Assembly (NCBI RefSeq): GCF_053078305.1
Contig: NZ_CP166879.1
DNA length: 64,000 nucleotides
Reading direction: 5' to 3' (one strand)
A program made the position numbers and the translations under genes. Under the pieces are notes generated by a model. That model had not been told where the DNA came from. It searched no databases and was given only the letters and a program-made list of their open reading frames with translations. Position 1 is the stretch's first letter. Each line of letters starts with the position of its first letter. Below are positions 2,767 to 52,757 of this stretch, one piece after another.

Positions 2767-5700
2767 TCACGAAATACTGATACCCGCCGTGGACTTCTTC
2801 ATCACGACAACCAGCAGATCGCTGATACTCGCTGTCGGGTACCATCCATTCACCAGCCAGGCAGACACAGAAAACTCCAGCGTCATATGCCCCCTTCCTG
2901 CAGGCATATCAATCACCCCTGAATACACCTGAGACTCAGCCAGCGCCGTCCTTTCAAAAAGCACCCTGCCGTTACATTTCACCATCAGCCGGCATGATGA
3001 ATAAATATCGTTATGCTCTCTCTCATGTTTAGCGCCGCTGAAAGCCACTGCCGGGATCACAATTTGCCGGTCAAAAGGCTGATCGTCATAAATCCTGACG
3101 GTAATGGTCCCCGATGGCCACCGCTCCGGTGCGCGGGAGTCCCGCGGGAAAGCCTTCCCCACGGTTTTAACAATATCGCCTTCAATCTGGTTGGCAGACA
3201 GTTTTCCAAGTATCCGGCAGTTCTGGTTAATGGTCACATTATTGAGCGTGCCCGAGTTCGCACTGATATGTCCGCTGATGTCCGCATTGCGGGCCGTCAG
3301 CCTGCCCTCCGGCGTCAGGGAGAACGTCGGGGGATTGCCGGACGAGGTGATGCTCACTGCAAACAACCGCTTCAGGAACACATCGTTCATGAACAGCTGA
3401 TTCCCCTGCGCCACAAACAGCGGCGTGGTGTTGCCGTTCTCCGGGTTAATCATCGCGATACGGTCCGCCTGCAGCAGTATATTGCTCAGGGGCTGGCCAT
3501 CAGCATCCTCAATCCCCGCACCAATACCGGCAACATACGGAATGCCGTTTTTCGTTTTCTGCACCTTCAGCATGTACAGCGCAGCCAGGTCGTTATTTGT
3601 GTCTGTCTGCACCCGCTGTATCTGCTGTATGGTGGCACTCTGGTCTTCCAGGGTTTTACTGACCGTCTGCGTGATTTCATTGCGGGTTTCGGTGATGGTG
3701 GTCTTCATCTCCGCCATCTCATCATCAAGCTGGCTGTTATCAATCAGCTCCCACATCCCCTGTGCCAGATGTGTCTTCCCGATTTCTCCTCTGAAAAAGT
3801 CCAGATACCCTTCCGCATCATTGCTGGCCCGGCCACTGGCTTCCACAAACGCAGATTTCCCCACCAGGTTGACGCTGCGCACATAAAACCAGAAATCCTT
3901 CCCCGGCTTAATGTGCGGGCCGGAGACACTCCACTGGCGGCCTGTCCCCAGATAACGGGCAGAGGTTTCCACCTGAGATGTGTCTGCGATTTTTGCCTCC
4001 GAAAACCAGAACTCAAATTGTACCGTCGGGTCATACACCGTAAGATGCGGGACCGCCGTTATCTGATAATACCCCGGCGTCAGCTCAATGCTGTCCGGTG
4101 CTGCCGGGGCGTTAATCCGGAACGTGGTGGTGGCAGGTTCGCCCTGCTGGCCGTAGCTGTTTATCGCCCTGACCGTCAGGGTGTATTCCCCGGGCGGCAG
4201 GCCACTGAAACGGTGCTCCGTATCGGCAGTGATGGCGCTGGTCACCAGGCGGCTGTTTTCACCACTGCCACTGGTCAGGCGCAGACTGAAGCGCACGCCC
4301 TTCACCACCCGCGGCGTGTCCCATTTTGCCAGCGCCATATACTGGCCGTCTGAGGCACTCACCTCCACCGTGAGGTGCTGCACTGCCGGCGGGATGACGC
4401 TGTTCAGTGAACCGGAGAGCGGCTCAAAGCGGGCCCCGTTATCCACGATGGCTTCTTTTTCCGGTACGTGCTGCACTGCCGTGATGGCAAAGGTGCCGTC
4501 CGTGTTTTCCCGGATGGAAACACAGCGGAACAGGCGACGACGCAGTGACGGCAGGGAGAGTCCCCACACACCGTATGTCTCCACGCCATCCGGCAGGGCG
4601 CTGACCTGTATCCGGTCAGGGGCGGGGTGTGCAGTGATGTCCACGCGCACCGGCTTACCGCTGCCGTTAATCAGGTTCACCGTCGATGTACCTGCTTCCG
4701 GCAGTGTCACCTCACGGTCCAGCGTCAGTGTGCGGCTGGCGGCATCGATGGACAGGATGCGTCCACCGGTCAGGGTCCCGGCATAGTCGTTATCACAGAT
4801 TTCAATGATGTCACCGGGCGTGTGCCGCAGCCCCTGTGACCCGAGCATGAAATCCACCGTCTGTGTTTCCAGCAGTTCTGTCTTTATCACCCACAGTCCG
4901 GCACGGTGGGCCTGACCGCGGCTGGTACAGCCGAACGCATCCATCTTCAGCAGATTGCGCCCGTAGCGCAGGATGGCGTCCGGGTCTTCCACCAGTTCCG
5001 TGGAAGTCTGCCAGCCGTTCTGCGGGTCAGTGTAATTCACCTCCACCGCCGTGTGCCGGTCCTTCAGGGCACTGAAGCTGTAGCGGAACCCCACGCCGTT
5101 ATCATCCACCACCACATCGCTGTTGGTGTACGGCCACACCACATCCGACGGACGGTCCTGAACGAACGTCAGCGTCTGGCCGTTCCATACCGGCATACAG
5201 CGCATCGCCGAGCAGAAATCCCCCAGGACATCCCACACCTTACGCTGCTGTGACAGGTACGCATTGAAAGTCATCCGCGGCTCTGTTCCCCCGAAACCAT
5301 CCGGGACCGTCTGGTCACAGTACTGCCCGATGGCATACAGTGCCCACTTGTCCACGTCCGGGGCCCCCAGGCGTTTTCCCATCCCGTAGCGCGGGTGGGT
5401 CAGCATGTCCCACAGGCACCAGGCCGGGTTATTGCTGTATGCCGGTTTCAGACTCCCGTCCCAGATACCGCTGTAGGTGCGTTTTTCCGGGTCATAGTTT
5501 GACGGCACCTGAATGATGCGACCACGGATATGGTAGTTCACCGTCAGCTGCTGGCCACCAAACTGCTCCGCATCCACCTGCAGCCCCACAATGGCCGTGT
5601 TCGGGTAGCACTGTTTCACATCGATGATTTCGGTGTATGACGACCACAGCGTTCTGTTCTGCAGCTGGTCCGTGGTGCTGTCCGCCGTCTCCCTGACCAT

Positions 5701-31149: not shown

Positions 31150-31960
31150 TGCGGGCTTTTTTTATCCATAAGAAAGCCCCTCCGGAGAGGGGCTGGAGTA
31201 GCGCTATGTACCGTTCATTGCATGATGCCGGGTGCCTCCCGGTGAGTTCAGCCCGGTGCCACCGAACCCGCGTCATTCTCGCTAACGATCATCAGAGACC
31301 ATACCGTACACCAGCCGCCCCTCCGCACAGGGGGATTCATCATGCAGAAATTTTTTAACAAATTCTCAGTCGGGAAGACAACCTTCAACTGACTGAATTG
31401 TGAGCAACATAGCATTTAACGGGGAACCTGTTTTCTGCAGTAAAAAGGCCCACCGGAGCGGACGGGCCTGGAAGGATAGCGGTCATGTGATGCCGGTTTC
31501 CCGGTAACTCAGCACCGGTATCTGAGTCAACGTTTTCTCTACTGGGTCATTTCCGATACGCCCTGCCTGCTGACAGGCTTTCATCACATCTGAAAATATA
31601 GCACCCTGACTGATACTGTAGTACCCAAGGTTCCAGAAACTGTGATGTATCCGGCACAGAAAAGCCCCTCCGGAGAGGGGCTGACGCTGCGTATCTGTAT
31701 CATCATGCGCATGGTGCCGGGTGCCTCCCGGTGAGTTCAGTATCAGCACCTGAACCCGCACAGAAAGGATAAGGGATGTAACCAAACACCTGTCGCTGAT
31801 ATGCCCCTCCGCTCAGGGGGATTCACCATGCCAGTTTCTTTTAACAAACTCCCCGCAAATCAGACAACTGTCAACCGTCTGAATTGTGAGACATTTAAAA
31901 TTTTCGGGGCAACAGGAAGACAATCATCACGACACCGGCAACCAGCGACCGGCACCAGAT
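31150..31960. repeat. Two diverged copies (~490-bp spacing) of a structured non-coding element
   Basis: Shared segments AAGCCCCTCCGGAGAGGGGCT, TGCCGGGTGCCTCCCGGTGAGTTCAG, CCCCTCCGCxCAGGGGGATTCA, CTGAATTGTGAG at ~31174/31664, 31223/31713, 31317/31804, 31394/31879. Confidence 0.6.
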
Positions 31961-32981: not shown

Positions 32982-33058
32982 TGGTGCGTTGTACTGGATT
33001 CGAACCAGTGACCGATTGCTTAGAAGGCAATTGCTCTGTCCGGCTGAGCTAACAACGC
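32982..33058 (-). tRNA. argO: tRNA-Arg (anticodon TCT), argO-like
   Basis: Cloverleaf read by eye; anticodon loop CTTCTAA; GGTTCGAATCC T-arm; CCA end. Confidence 0.8.
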
Positions 33059-33071
33059 AGTGTACAGATAA

Positions 33072-33148
33072 TGGACCGCCATCGAGGACTCGAACCCCGC
33101 GCAACCAGCTTCGAAGGCTGGCGCTCTATCCCGATGAGCTAATGGCGG
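33072..33148 (-). tRNA. argN: tRNA-Arg (anticodon TCG), argN-like
   Basis: Anticodon loop CTTCGAA; GGTTCGAGTCC T-arm. Confidence 0.75.
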
Positions 33149-33155
33149 TATGTGA

Positions 33156-33231
33156 TGGTGGCCCTTGCTGGATTTGAACCAGCGACCTGGCGATTATGAG
33201 TCGCTCGCTCTCACCACTGAGCTAAAGGGCC
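33156..33231 (-). tRNA. ileZ: tRNA with CAT anticodon, ileX-like (tRNA-Ile2), ileZ-like
   Basis: GGCCCTTTAGCTCAGTGG...GACTCATAATCGC...GGTTCAAATCC...CCA; close to E. coli ileX. Confidence 0.75.
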
Positions 33232-35947: not shown

Positions 35948-36997
35948 TTACCCGAGCACGCCAGTCGCAAAGGCGTGATCAAGAAAACGAAAAATTAACT
36001 CAATCTGAGAGCCGTACTTTTTCTCAAACTCCAGCGGGTCTGCATGAAGTTCGTTGTGGTGCTCCCGGCACAACGGTAGCGTGAAAATATCGTGGGCCTT
36101 TGTCCCCATTCCCCCCTGACCATGACCAATCAGGTGATGCGGATCGTCAGCAGGCTTACCACAACACGCACACGGCTGTGTCTTTACCCAGCGCGTGTAT
36201 TTCTCATTAACCCAACGGCGACGTTTAGGCCGCCTCATGAACGATTCAGGAGACTCCGGATCAACGGCGATACTGACAACCGTTTTTTTCTGTGGTGGAT
36301 TTTGTTGCTGGTGGACGTGAAGTGGCAGCGCAATATTTTTTGTGCGCTGCTTCAGTATGCTGATGGCTGTCTGTTCTCCCGGTACGATGTCACTCTCACG
36401 GTATACGGAGCGGATTTTTTCCGCTGGTAATCCCAGCGAACGACGCGCTACTGCCTCAGGTAGTGCATCCACCACCTGATTGCAGGCCGCCCACCAGGAT
36501 AATTCGGCCAGCGATAACTCCCTCTCCTGCGTGCCGCTTATTGCGTGACGGATGACGTCAATCATCCAGGCAACCAGATTCTGCTGAGCAAGTTGATCGA
36601 GTGATTCTGATGTCTGGTCGCGCAGCTGGTTGTCACAGTGCCAGCACAACACCATCGCGCCGGTACCGTAACGGTGAATGACGGTTTCGCTGTGATGATA
36701 ATCGCCGTGTGGCCACTGGCAGGATTTCACGTGACGTAATAACCAGTCAGACAGTGCACCTGCACCACCCGCAGCACGAATCACCCGTTCGTTGCTGAAA
36801 AATGGCAGTAATGTTTTATCCTCTGCCAGCGGCTGTCGAACGGCGGGAACGACTCCGGACGGCAGACCGCGCATGTTTTTCGGTTCCGGCTCCACCAATA
36901 TTCTGCCGTTATGGAATGCTGACATTGATTCACGGCCCGGCTTAAGGAGCACCATCCCGAGTTCCGGTACCAGAACAGGTCGAAGTAATACCCGCAC
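35948..36997 (-). CDS. DUF968-like phage protein with C-terminal HNH-like Cys/His motif
   Basis: 349 aa; ...CACCGKPADDPHHLIGHGQGGMGTKAHD...CREHHNELH. Confidence 0.55.
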   Translation of the reverse strand: MRVLLRPVLVPELGMVLLKPGRESMSAFHNGRILVEPEPKNMRGLPSGVVPAVRQPLAEDKTLLPFFSNERVIRAAGGAGALSDWLLRHVKSCQWPHGDYHHSETVIHRYGTGAMVLCWHCDNQLRDQTSESLDQLAQQNLVAWMIDVIRHAISGTQERELSLAELSWWAACNQVVDALPEAVARRSLGLPAEKIRSVYRESDIVPGEQTAISILKQRTKNIALPLHVHQQQNPPQKKTVVSIAVDPESPESFMRRPKRRRWVNEKYTRWVKTQPCACCGKPADDPHHLIGHGQGGMGTKAHDIFTLPLCREHHNELHADPLEFEKKYGSQIELIFRFLDHAFATGVLG

Positions 36998-37321: not shown

Positions 37322-37594
37322 TTATAGCTGCTTCTGAATATCATCAACAGGTAATCCTGCCAACTCTCTTACCTCAGAAAGAAGAGAAAGGCTTACAACA
37401 ACCTCATTACTTCGCATAACAAAACCACATTGAAAAGAACCATCACTGTTTCTGTAAACAACAACCGGGCGCGTGCTCTCATAAAACCCCGGGATCAAAC
37501 TGGCTGGGATTTTCACAACACCTCCTGACGTAAAGGAAATGAAATGCATTATCGCTTCTCTCGGACTATAACCATGAAAAGAGACGCATTTCAC
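37322..37594 (-). CDS. Hypothetical nin-region protein
   Basis: Track ORF; no family recognised. Confidence 0.3.
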   Translation of the reverse strand: MKCVSFHGYSPREAIMHFISFTSGGVVKIPASLIPGFYESTRPVVVYRNSDGSFQCGFVMRSNEVVVSLSLLSEVRELAGLPVDDIQKQL

Positions 37595-37772
37595 TCAGTA
37601 AATCTGAGGATTTTATGCGCAAAAACAATGACTTTTTCTGTCTGCCGTTTATACAATCTGAATTACGTCTGTTTTTTGAACAACGATAAATCAGCAAACA
37701 TTCTCAAATAAAGATTGCCTCCATAGTCCACATGGTGTAACACTATGTGTTATATAAAATGCAGAGGCAGGT

Positions 37773-38144
37773 ATGCGAATTTTCAAAAACGCCTGGTTTG
37801 AACGTTTCGCCCGAAAACATCGGATTTCCGATAAATCGCTGCGCGAAATCGTGGAGCAGGCCGATAAGGGGATCATATCCGCAAATTTGGGTAGTGGTGT
37901 CATTAAACAAAGATTAGCCCGAAGTGGTGGCGGAAAATCAGGCGGTTACCGGACAATAATTTTTTACCGCGTTGCAGAAAAAGCCTTTTTCATCTACGCA
38001 TACGCAAAGAATGAACGAGAGAATATCACCGCTATAGAGGAAAATGCTTTTCGAAAAGCCGCTCCCCATGTCCTCAATCTTACTGATGAACAGCTGGCAC
38101 AATTGATTCTACAAGGCCAGTTCACGGAGGTACCCAATGAGTAA
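37773..38144 (+). CDS. Type II toxin, Gp49/RelE-like (DUF891-like)
   Basis: 123 aa; ...GGYRTIIFYRVAEKAFFIYAYAKNERENITAIEE...; 8-nt overlap with downstream HTH gene. Confidence 0.6.
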   Translation: MRIFKNAWFERFARKHRISDKSLREIVEQADKGIISANLGSGVIKQRLARSGGGKSGGYRTIIFYRVAEKAFFIYAYAKNERENITAIEENAFRKAAPHVLNLTDEQLAQLILQGQFTEVPNE

Positions 38145-38454
38145 AAATTACCGCAGTGATGCACTTGCATCTGTACATGAAATGATGGAGTCACTCCATG
38201 ATATCGGTGCAATCACAAAACAAACTATGCGCGAATTCGATGAAACTTGTCTTCAGCCTGCGCCGGTAATGTCTCCAGAAAGGATCCGTGCACTGCGAGA
38301 ACGAGAGCATCTGTCTCAACCTGTTTTTGCCAGATACCTCAACGTCAGTAAAAACCTGATATCAGACTGGGAACGAGGAGTGAAACGCCCGGGAGGTGCA
38401 GCTCTTCGGCTTCTTTCAGTTGTCGAGAAAAACGGGATCCAGGTAATATCCTGA
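38137..38454 (+). CDS. XRE-family HTH antitoxin / regulator
   Basis: 105 aa; ...LREREHLSQPVFARYLNVSKNLISDWERGVKRP... helix-turn-helix. Confidence 0.6.
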   Translation: MSKNYRSDALASVHEMMESLHDIGAITKQTMREFDETCLQPAPVMSPERIRALREREHLSQPVFARYLNVSKNLISDWERGVKRPGGAALRLLSVVEKNGIQVIS

Positions 38455-38556
38455 TATTCTAATACAACAAAACCCGCCGAAGCAGGTTAAGTGCGGGTGC
38501 GTTGAGGATGCCTGGCACATCAGAGGTGGCGAGGGATTTCTCCCTCGCCTGGTCTC

Positions 38557-38712
38557 TTACTCCTCAGGTTCGTAAGCTGTGAAGACAGCGACCTCCGTCT
38601 GGCCGGTTCGGATTCGTACCTCGCAGAGGTCTTTCCTCGTTACCAGTGCCGTCACTATGACGGTTAAACAGATGACGATCAGGGCGATTAACATCGCCTT
38701 TTGCTGCTTCAT
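38557..38712 (-). CDS. hokD: Hok-family type I toxin (HokD/RelF-like)
   Basis: MKQQKAMLIALIVICLTVIVTALVTRKDLCEVRIRTGQTEVAVFTAYEPEE, internal start of track ORF (a mok-like upstream extension). Confidence 0.9.
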   Translation of the reverse strand: MKQQKAMLIALIVICLTVIVTALVTRKDLCEVRIRTGQTEVAVFTAYEPEE

Positions 38713-38983
38713 AGCCTGCTTCTCCTTGCCTTTCGGCACGTAAGAGGCTAACCTACATTTGTGAGACATAGATTGGGCCTCAGATTAATGTTAAGCGTCT
38801 TGCAGGACGCGAAATGTTAACTGGGGCTTTTCTCTATCTGCCTTTTGGTGTTCATGCCTGAGACAGATAGCCTCAAGCACCCGCAGCGATTTTACAGAAA
38901 TAAGTTATTATTTTCTATCTCACCCTTCACTTATCTCATTCCTAGCTATACTCATCGTTCACACAACATTAAAGGGCATAAAA

Positions 38984-45991: not shown

Positions 45992-46249
45992 TTAGCACCA
46001 GTAAAAACAGGTTGCCACTGGTTAATTTACCCTGAAAAGTCAGGGCATAACACGAAAGCGCACGGAGAAGCTCGTCTCTCTGTACTTTGTCGCTAAATTT
46101 AATTCGACCGTGCGCTTCCGGTTGTGGCAATCCGCGAAATGGCGCGGCGGTAAGTATGGCTGGGGTTTCCTCCATTGCTCCAGAAAATGCACCGGGTTGT
46201 CAGGTTGACCATACGCTTAAGTGACAGCCCCGCCACAATACCCATGTGT

Positions 46250-46300
46250 AGTCTTTGGTGGCATCAGTTCTACTCCGTGACTGCTCTGCCACCCTTTTTA
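46250..46300 (+). ncRNA. dicF: DicF-like small RNA
   Basis: ...TGGTGGCATCAGTTCTACTCCGTGACTGCTCTGCCACCC followed by TTTTT; similar to my recollection of E. coli DicF with terminal hairpin. Confidence 0.55.
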
Positions 46301-46788
46301 AAGTGAATTTTGTGATGCGGTGAATGCGGCTAAGCGCACGCGGAACAGTTAAAACCGTAAAGTGGTCTTTTACGGGGCGTAACGGGCATACTTCTGTATT
46401 CCGGCGTTAATTGTTAACTGGTTAACGTCACCTGGAGGCACCAGGCACTGCATCAACAAAGTTCACTTCGGTGATGAAGGGTAAGAGAAAATGTTGAATG
46501 TAGCTATTGAAAACCAGAACGGGTGGAATTATAGTGCACCTGCACCTCATAAAACGGGTGCCGGGCGTGGAAACCCGATGATGATCAACGCGCATAACCG
46601 CGCTCAGGCGGTTTTTTTTATGCGTCAAGCACAGCCACATTCAAATTATGGTGGGGCGTGCAGGGCAGCTGCAAGGCTGGCCGGCTCCGTTGGTCACCGG
46701 TATTTCCACCCCTGTACGTCTCACCACCTTTATGGTCGTGGAAAACCTCGGTGGTGAGTTATTTAAACTGATCAACGAGGCTGCCATC

Positions 46789-51600: not shown

Positions 51601-51690
51601 TGGTGGAGAGAGGGGGATTTGAACCCCCGGTGGAGTTGCCCCCACTCCGGTTTTCGAGACCGGTCCGTTCAGCCGCTCCGGCATCTCTCC
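51601..51690 (-). tRNA. serU: tRNA-Ser (anticodon CGA), serU-like; prophage attachment site
   Basis: GGAGAGATGCCGGAGCGGCTGAACGGACCGGTCTCGAAAACCGG...GGTTCAAATCCCCC...CCA read from minus strand. Confidence 0.85.
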
Positions 51691-52681: not shown

Positions 52682-52757
52682 TCCTCTGTAGTTCAGTCGG
52701 TAGAACGGCGGACTGTTAATCCGTATGTCACTGGTTCGAGTCCAGTCAGAGGAGCCA
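52682..52757 (+). tRNA. asnT: tRNA-Asn (anticodon GTT)
   Basis: TCCTCTGTAGTTCAGTCGGTAGAACGGCGGACTGTTAATCCG...GGTTCGAGTCC...CCA. Confidence 0.9.

Follow-up and report, generated by a model that had tools for sequence, protein, structure and literature searches.

The DNA analyzed here is a 64,000-nt window of contig NZ_CP166879.1 (assembly GCF_053078305.1), and the subject is a pair of small genes within it that very probably forms a HigBA-2-type type II toxin–antitoxin (TA) operon, a self-contained cassette that lies in reverse orientation within the early-right (nin-equivalent) part of a lambdoid Escherichia coli prophage, next to a hok/sok locus. The toxin gene lies at 37773–38144 on the plus strand and encodes 123 amino acids (aa) from an ATG start; the antitoxin gene follows at 38137–38454 on the same strand and encodes 105 aa, also from an ATG. 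The two open reading frames (ORFs) overlap by 8 nt at 38137–38144 (ATGAGTAA, common to both), so that the antitoxin start codon falls within the last codons of the toxin. By direct reading, the toxin gene has a GAGG Shine–Dalgarno element ahead of 37773, and the antitoxin gene has a GGAGG element within the 3′ end of the toxin gene, nine bases 5′ of its start at 38137. Judged from the sequence, the 8-nt overlap with a GGAGG inside the toxin gene is a classic arrangement for translational coupling. The toxin gene is preceded by a 256-bp divergent intergenic region (37517–37772), and the pair is inverted relative to the early-right prophage genes on both flanks, all of which lie on the minus strand. 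The pair has the general layout of a type II TA operon, with two small, adjacent, co-directional, overlapping genes whose pairing is conserved. A first-pass annotation had already reported the overlap, the opposite orientation, the divergent intergenic origin and two peptide motifs in the 123-aa protein (GGYRTIIFYR and YAYAKNERENIT), and each of these is present.

The toxin matches the Pfam family PF06296 (‘RelE’) with an E-value of 6e-47 and 159.2 bits against a cut-off of 27. The match is full length, with toxin residues 1–120 aligned to positions 1–120 of the 120-position profile. The antitoxin carries a C-terminal XRE helix-turn-helix (HTH) domain spanning residues ~45–100, with matches above the cut-offs to HTH_3 (32.3 bits; cut-off 23) and HTH_31 (31.4 bits; cut-off 27). 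The PF06296 and HTH_3 scores put the pair far beyond chance. PF06296 was the sole Pfam family returned for the toxin, and Gp49/DUF891 (PF05973) gave no match at E ≤ 0.01. The earlier description of the 123-aa protein as Gp49/RelE-like is therefore retained for its RelE-type part, whereas the Gp49 label gives way to PF06296, the HigB-2 family; the XRE-type HTH assigned to the 105-aa protein was recovered. Of the profile searches proposed with that description, the one for the HTH gave a match and the one for Gp49/DUF891 did not.

PF06296 is found in every close homologue of the toxin and has 2,323 cluster representatives in a library of 1.84 billion proteins. Vibrio cholerae HigB-2 belongs to this family (bioRxiv 10.1101/2025.01.28.635273), and the solved structures nearest the toxin by sequence are V. 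cholerae HigB-2 chains. The family is closer to RelE than to the HigB of Rts1. NCBIfam has no model for it, its PHROGs matches are all to families of unknown function, and RefSeq names it “type II toxin-antitoxin system RelE/ParE family toxin”. The toxin ORF in the window cannot extend upstream. Some database versions of the toxin (P0002/P0004; loci L018–L022, upstream of position 3001) are 171 aa long and carry a 48-aa N-terminal extension (…IVSHYVLHN… = TGTCACACTATGTATTACAC). These versions are probably mis-called starts, because the extension translates the putative operator/promoter DNA. Such mis-calls may bear on the ‘disordered N-terminal extensions’ described for PF_RelE/YiaG modules (bioRxiv 10.1101/2025.01.28.635273).

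An AlphaFold2 model of the toxin, made from 92 diverse homologues, has a predicted local distance difference test (pLDDT) score of 95.6, and the predicted structure has a RelE/BECR fold closest to HigB2. Alanine substitution in the V. cholerae toxin (VcHigB2) has shown R51, R64, Y82 and K84 to be important (PMC5416850). These residues align with R47, R60, Y77 and K79 of the toxin, all four of which are present and make up its predicted active site. Among the 92 homologues, which are 36–64% identical, K45, R60 and K79 never vary, and conservation of R47 is at least 90%. The RefSeq designation ‘RelE/ParE family’ would also allow a ParE-type poison of DNA gyrase instead of an mRNA endonuclease. 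This alternative is highly improbable, as the best sequence and fold matches of the toxin are to HigB2, the RelE-like Arg/Arg/Tyr/Lys active site is kept, and the characterized member of PF06296 is a ribosome-dependent mRNase.

The antitoxin has V. cholerae HigA-2 as its top Protein Data Bank (PDB) match (E = 7e-8), along with a weak match to PRK10072/YiaG. PGAP and RefSeq name it only “helix-turn-helix domain-containing protein” or “DNA-binding transcriptional regulator”. A fused toxin–linker–antitoxin AlphaFold2 model was built on 29 paired sequences and assessed by pLDDT and predicted template modeling (pTM) score; pTM is 0.75 for the whole chain, and the artificial linker is the only disordered part. 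In Foldseek comparisons, the HTH half of this model aligns with the C-terminal domain of HigA2 (5j9i) with TM-scores of 0.81–0.86 and a root-mean-square deviation of 1.0–1.4 Å, and the toxin half again retrieves HigB2. Two N-terminal antitoxin helices, at residues 8–22 and 28–38, are modeled with pLDDT >90. The model fits, without being proof of, an N-terminal antitoxin segment that packs on the toxin as in V. cholerae HigA2 (VcHigA2). The N-terminal ~40 residues of the antitoxin are predicted to be the toxin-binding segment, and the C-terminal XRE HTH is predicted to serve in dimerization and DNA binding.

A putative operon promoter can be read directly at 37727–37756 on the plus strand, with a −35-like TCCACA (37727–37732), an 18-bp spacer and an extended −10 element, TGtTATATA (37748–37756). 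The promoter scan passed over this site because its −10 ends in A. An inverted-repeat search gives a candidate operator at 37736–37754 on the plus strand, TGTAACAC-TAT-GTGTTATA, with a perfect TAACAC-TAT-GTGTTA core; it sits between the −35-like and extended −10 elements and over the putative −10. A second palindrome at 37729–37749, CACATGGTGT-A-ACACTATGTG, overlaps it. The 19-bp palindromic block is kept among cassette variants whose upstream sequences are in other respects unrelated, and 37736 is the exact point from which the copy in phage PhiR12_3 is homologous. The candidate operator is unique in the 64-kb window, where 0 matches are expected by chance and no other copy of the sequence was found. 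In V. cholerae higBA2, the promoter and the footprinted VcHigA2 operator lie at the corresponding position, and that operator differs in sequence (PMC11006873). From conservation and position, we infer a promoter and operator for the pair at 37727–37756.

Two other forms of control were considered. The promoter called by the scanning tool at 37628–37657 is not part of the conserved cassette, as this DNA is absent from the other variants. One Salmonella higB-2 is reported to share an SOS box; here, no CTGT-N8-ACAG site with at most one mismatch occurs in 37517–37772, and the window-wide count of such sites equals chance, so LexA control was set aside. Beyond the antitoxin gene, a hairpin at 38471–38488 is followed by a T-run on the minus strand only and is assigned as the terminator of the convergent hok transcript; it also serves as the right-hand limit of the cassette. 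The search for an intrinsic terminator on the plus strand after the antitoxin gene was negative, and with no plus-strand T-run at the hairpin, the TA operon lacks an obvious one of its own.

These features suggest how the operon may work. By homology, the toxin would enter the ribosomal A site, cut translated mRNA and stop growth. Synthesis of the antitoxin would be translationally coupled to that of the toxin through the 8-nt overlap and the internal GGAGG, and neutralization is predicted to occur through folding of its N-terminal ~40 residues onto the toxin. A dimer formed through the C-terminal XRE HTH would bind the palindrome at 37736–37754 and could repress the operon because the bound palindrome, as proposed, overlaps the −10 element.

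Conservation of the pair was followed in 80 phage loci that carry a toxin relative and come from a scan of viral contigs. In 79 of them, the next gene downstream on the same strand encodes an antitoxin homologue, and the one exception ends at a contig edge. This synteny persists down to 35% toxin identity, with overlaps of 4–17 nt or short gaps between the genes. Between lineages of the E. coli cassette, non-synonymous differences amount to 3–8% and synonymous sites are near saturation; the ratio of non-synonymous to synonymous rates (dN/dS) is about 0.02–0.05 for both genes, indicating strong purifying selection. The full-length profile match, the HigB2–HigA2 complexes as nearest structures, the catalytic residues, the synteny and the RefSeq name together uphold the proposal of the first-pass annotation that this is a toxin-first, HigBA-like type II TA pair. 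Both exact proteins are already in NCBI RefSeq, and the pair is an uncharacterized member of a well-understood kind.

Several observations weigh against this assignment. The toxin is frameshifted in 14 of the 38 close phage-borne copies, through at least four independent events, which argues that it is often dispensable. Tyr77 is replaced by Phe in many distant toxin relatives, and the β2–β3 loop of the toxin, here Gly-rich, is less basic than that of VcHigB2, where it has been proposed to hold the toxin on 16S rRNA (PMC5416850). The characterized V. cholerae proteins are only about 20–35% identical to the pair, and the fused model was assessed only by pLDDT and pTM. The residues with which VcHigA2 contacts bases, R68, E71, N72 and R77, correspond to N73, S76, D77 and V82 in the antitoxin, so that all four are changed and the operator assignment rests only on conservation and position. 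A literature search by accession and topic returned no experimental work on the pair.

Decayed toxin copies were seen at loci L029–L042, L002, L086 and L087, and the antitoxin beside frameshifted toxins is intact and 99–100% identical. Complete genomes also show decay: the toxin is split in two in strain ST130 and truncated in O104:H4 2009EL-2050. Such decay beside a preserved antitoxin is usually the picture presented by real toxins that are costly or dispensable. It could also mean that the pair no longer works as a TA system, with the HTH protein regulating phage transcription and the upstream protein surviving as a relic that is inactive or non-toxic. The many copies in which a broken toxin accompanies a perfectly conserved HTH protein, and the PGAP name of the second gene, which is only ‘helix-turn-helix domain-containing protein’, would agree with this view. 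Even so, it is improbable: the toxin ORF in the window is intact with all four catalytic residues, the toxin is under purifying selection between lineages (dN/dS of about 0.02–0.04), and the 64-kb window contains a single copy of the operator-like sequence, located at the putative promoter of the pair itself, so that no other phage target is visible.

The closest known system is V. cholerae HigB2–HigA2 (VCA0468/0469; PDB 5JAA, 5MJE, 5J9I and 8A0X). The pair shares with it a PF06296 toxin, toxin-first order, a RelE-like fold and an Arg/Arg/Tyr/Lys active site, together with an antitoxin that has an N-terminal neutralizing segment (predicted here) and a C-terminal XRE HTH, and a single palindromic operator between the −35 and −10 elements (a candidate here). 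The toxin exceeds VcHigB2 in length by 13 aa and has a second C-terminal helix as well as a terminal strand. The operator also differs, being TGTAACAC-N3-GTGTTATA here and TGTACGC-N5-GCGTACA in V. cholerae. With the base-contacting residues of the antitoxin changed as well, the pair predicts an operator whose recognition code is unlike that of V. cholerae HigA2. The V. cholerae genes form a superintegron cassette, whereas the present pair lies in a lambdoid prophage.

Other RelE-superfamily systems resemble the pair in part. Bicistronic relE-yiaG modules, in which a PF_RelE toxin lies upstream of a YiaG-like HTH protein, have been described in E. coli in silico (bioRxiv 10.1101/2025.01.28.635273). 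They share the toxin family, the YiaG/HigA2-like antitoxin architecture and predicted neutralization through the N-terminal antitoxin helices, but they are noted for disordered toxin N-terminal extensions, for which the ORF in the window leaves no room. The HigBA systems of Rts1/Proteus vulgaris and E. coli K-12 (PF05015) are likewise toxin-first with an HTH antitoxin, and their toxin is a ribosome-dependent mRNase, the activity predicted here. The relBE-hokD locus of the K-12 Qin prophage is also a RelE-superfamily type II TA system that adjoins hokD in the same prophage neighborhood (… hokD–rem–ydfU–Q). Unlike the present pair, it is antitoxin-first, its toxin, E. coli RelE, falls in PF05016, and it shares the strand of hokD and sits on the other side of that gene. 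RelB is a ribbon-helix-helix protein, with a fold unlike that of the antitoxin here.

On the minus strand, the prophage gene order runs from cro, ydaT and replication genes through hokD, the inverted pair, a 64-aa gene, a hypothetical gene, DUF968, RusA, a Q-like gene and tRNAs to the late genes. The pair therefore lies between the replication genes and DUF968–RusA–Q, in agreement with the nin-region setting first suggested for it. BLAST comparison with mEp460 and PPompW indicates that the segment 37309–38468, consisting of the 64-aa gene and the TA operon, occupies the place taken in related lambdoid phages by the ‘rem’ segment. The 64-aa gene (37322–37516, minus strand) is divergent from the toxin gene, has a GTG start with an AGGAGG Shine–Dalgarno element, and matches phrog_31309 (E = 8e-48), a family of unknown function. 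It was considered as a third component and rejected, since it occurs with the cassette in the window-type context alone and is missing from the others. A 95-aa gene on the minus strand separates it from DUF968/ydfU (35948–36997, minus strand).

On the other side of the pair lies a complete hok/sok type I TA locus (38557–38882, minus strand), which is convergent with the pair. Its hokD-like coding sequence (38557–38712, minus strand) matches Pfam HOK_GEF with E = 3e-23. A mok-like ORF overlaps this coding sequence and reaches 38769, and an Rfam sok match covers 38707–38882 (121 bits). The stop codons of the antitoxin and hok genes lie only 102 nt apart.

Copies of the cassette occupy at least four different prophage contexts. 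In an O104:H4 prophage, it stands beside Phd/Doc and hokD, just upstream of ninB-ninE-rusA-ninH-Q; the copy in O104:H4 2009EL-2050 (L087, 4090–5818), next to Phd/Doc and hokD, is decayed. K-12 Qin has relBE-hokD-rem-ydfU-Q at the equivalent place (L085, 4120–4873). With TA modules at this position in the window, in O104:H4 and in K-12 Qin, it follows that the replication-to-nin junction of lambdoid prophages is a point that repeatedly collects them, including hok/sok, relBE, phd/doc and higBA-2. Of 5,426 complete E. coli genomes, 216 carry the pair, invariably in the chromosome and with 0 copies on plasmids; the lineages concerned include O157:H7, O145 and O104:H4.

Nothing separates addiction or stabilization from phage defense as the biological role of the pair, and either would suit a prophage setting among other TA modules. 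The first-pass annotation had suggested abortive infection or prophage stabilization; here, addiction or stabilization is ranked above abortive infection. Most likely the pair acts as a selfish addiction module by which the prophage region is stabilized, and phage exclusion may arise as a by-product, although the chance that this is the role is put at somewhat less than even. If the segment were lost, the labile antitoxin would disappear first and the stable toxin would arrest the cell; the intact antitoxins beside broken toxins would then be anti-addiction remnants. V. cholerae higBA-2 is reported to stabilize plasmids, and the movement of the cassette between at least four prophage contexts, the repeated toxin frameshifts beside a nearly unchanged antitoxin, and the strong purifying selection where the toxin is intact are all in keeping with this role. 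Against it, post-segregational killing suits an integrated prophage poorly, since excision is usually lethal in any case. An addiction role is compatible with the HigBA-2-type assignment and does not exclude it.

Anti-phage abortive infection is doubtful as the main role. Here, an infecting phage would shut off host transcription or trigger loss of the antitoxin, and the freed toxin would cut mRNA and abort the infection, thereby protecting the lysogen population. The pair is a prophage accessory cassette with its own putative promoter, and its slot gathers TA modules (hok/sok here, Phd/Doc with hokD in O104:H4 and relBE-hokD in K-12 Qin). Other RelE-superfamily TA systems (HigBAC/TAC) are reported to abort phage infection, as summarized in bioRxiv 10.1101/2025.01.28.635273. 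In PADLOC-DB 2.0, by contrast, no model matches the toxin, and the antitoxin matches only generic HTH models, among them RmrA, control protein and capH. Roughly one in three close copies keeps the antitoxin but has lost the toxin, and steady selection for defense is disfavored because the toxin is lost so frequently. A sensor component or phage trigger is not evident either.

The reverse orientation of the pair may itself be functional, in which case the pair would be an induction-timed host shut-off or abort switch and not a simple addiction module; this seems a long shot. The operon is directed against early-right transcription, and no terminator belonging to it lies ahead of the convergent hok gene. 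Prophage induction, or read-through from a superinfecting phage, might therefore produce antisense transcription that silences the operon, whereupon decay of the labile antitoxin would set the mRNase free at a defined stage of the lytic program. Read-through from the TA operon would in turn be antisense to the 3′ end of the hok mRNA and could link the type II module to the type I module.

The finding is an ordinary one and matters little beyond good annotation. With it, the HigBA-2 family, whose structures are well studied, gains a prophage-borne representative from E. coli; the modestly useful points are the prediction of an operator code different from that of V. cholerae HigA2, the TA-collecting junction, and a toxin that is often broken while its antitoxin is preserved. 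The pair could show whether such cassettes stabilize Shiga-toxin-type prophages or exclude competing phages.

Several RNA features lie elsewhere in the window. Two tandem copies of the small RNA STnc100, on the minus strand at 31164–31374 and 31654–31860 (168 and 135 bits), and a cluster of three tRNA genes (32985–33231, minus strand) lie downstream of the Q-like/methyltransferase region of the prophage. Matches to DicF, isrK and C4 antisense RNA follow one another at 46243–46731 on the plus strand, in the immunity-left region of the prophage. Two further tRNA genes, at 51604–51690 (minus strand) and 52682–52754 (plus strand), possibly lie at the prophage attachment site.
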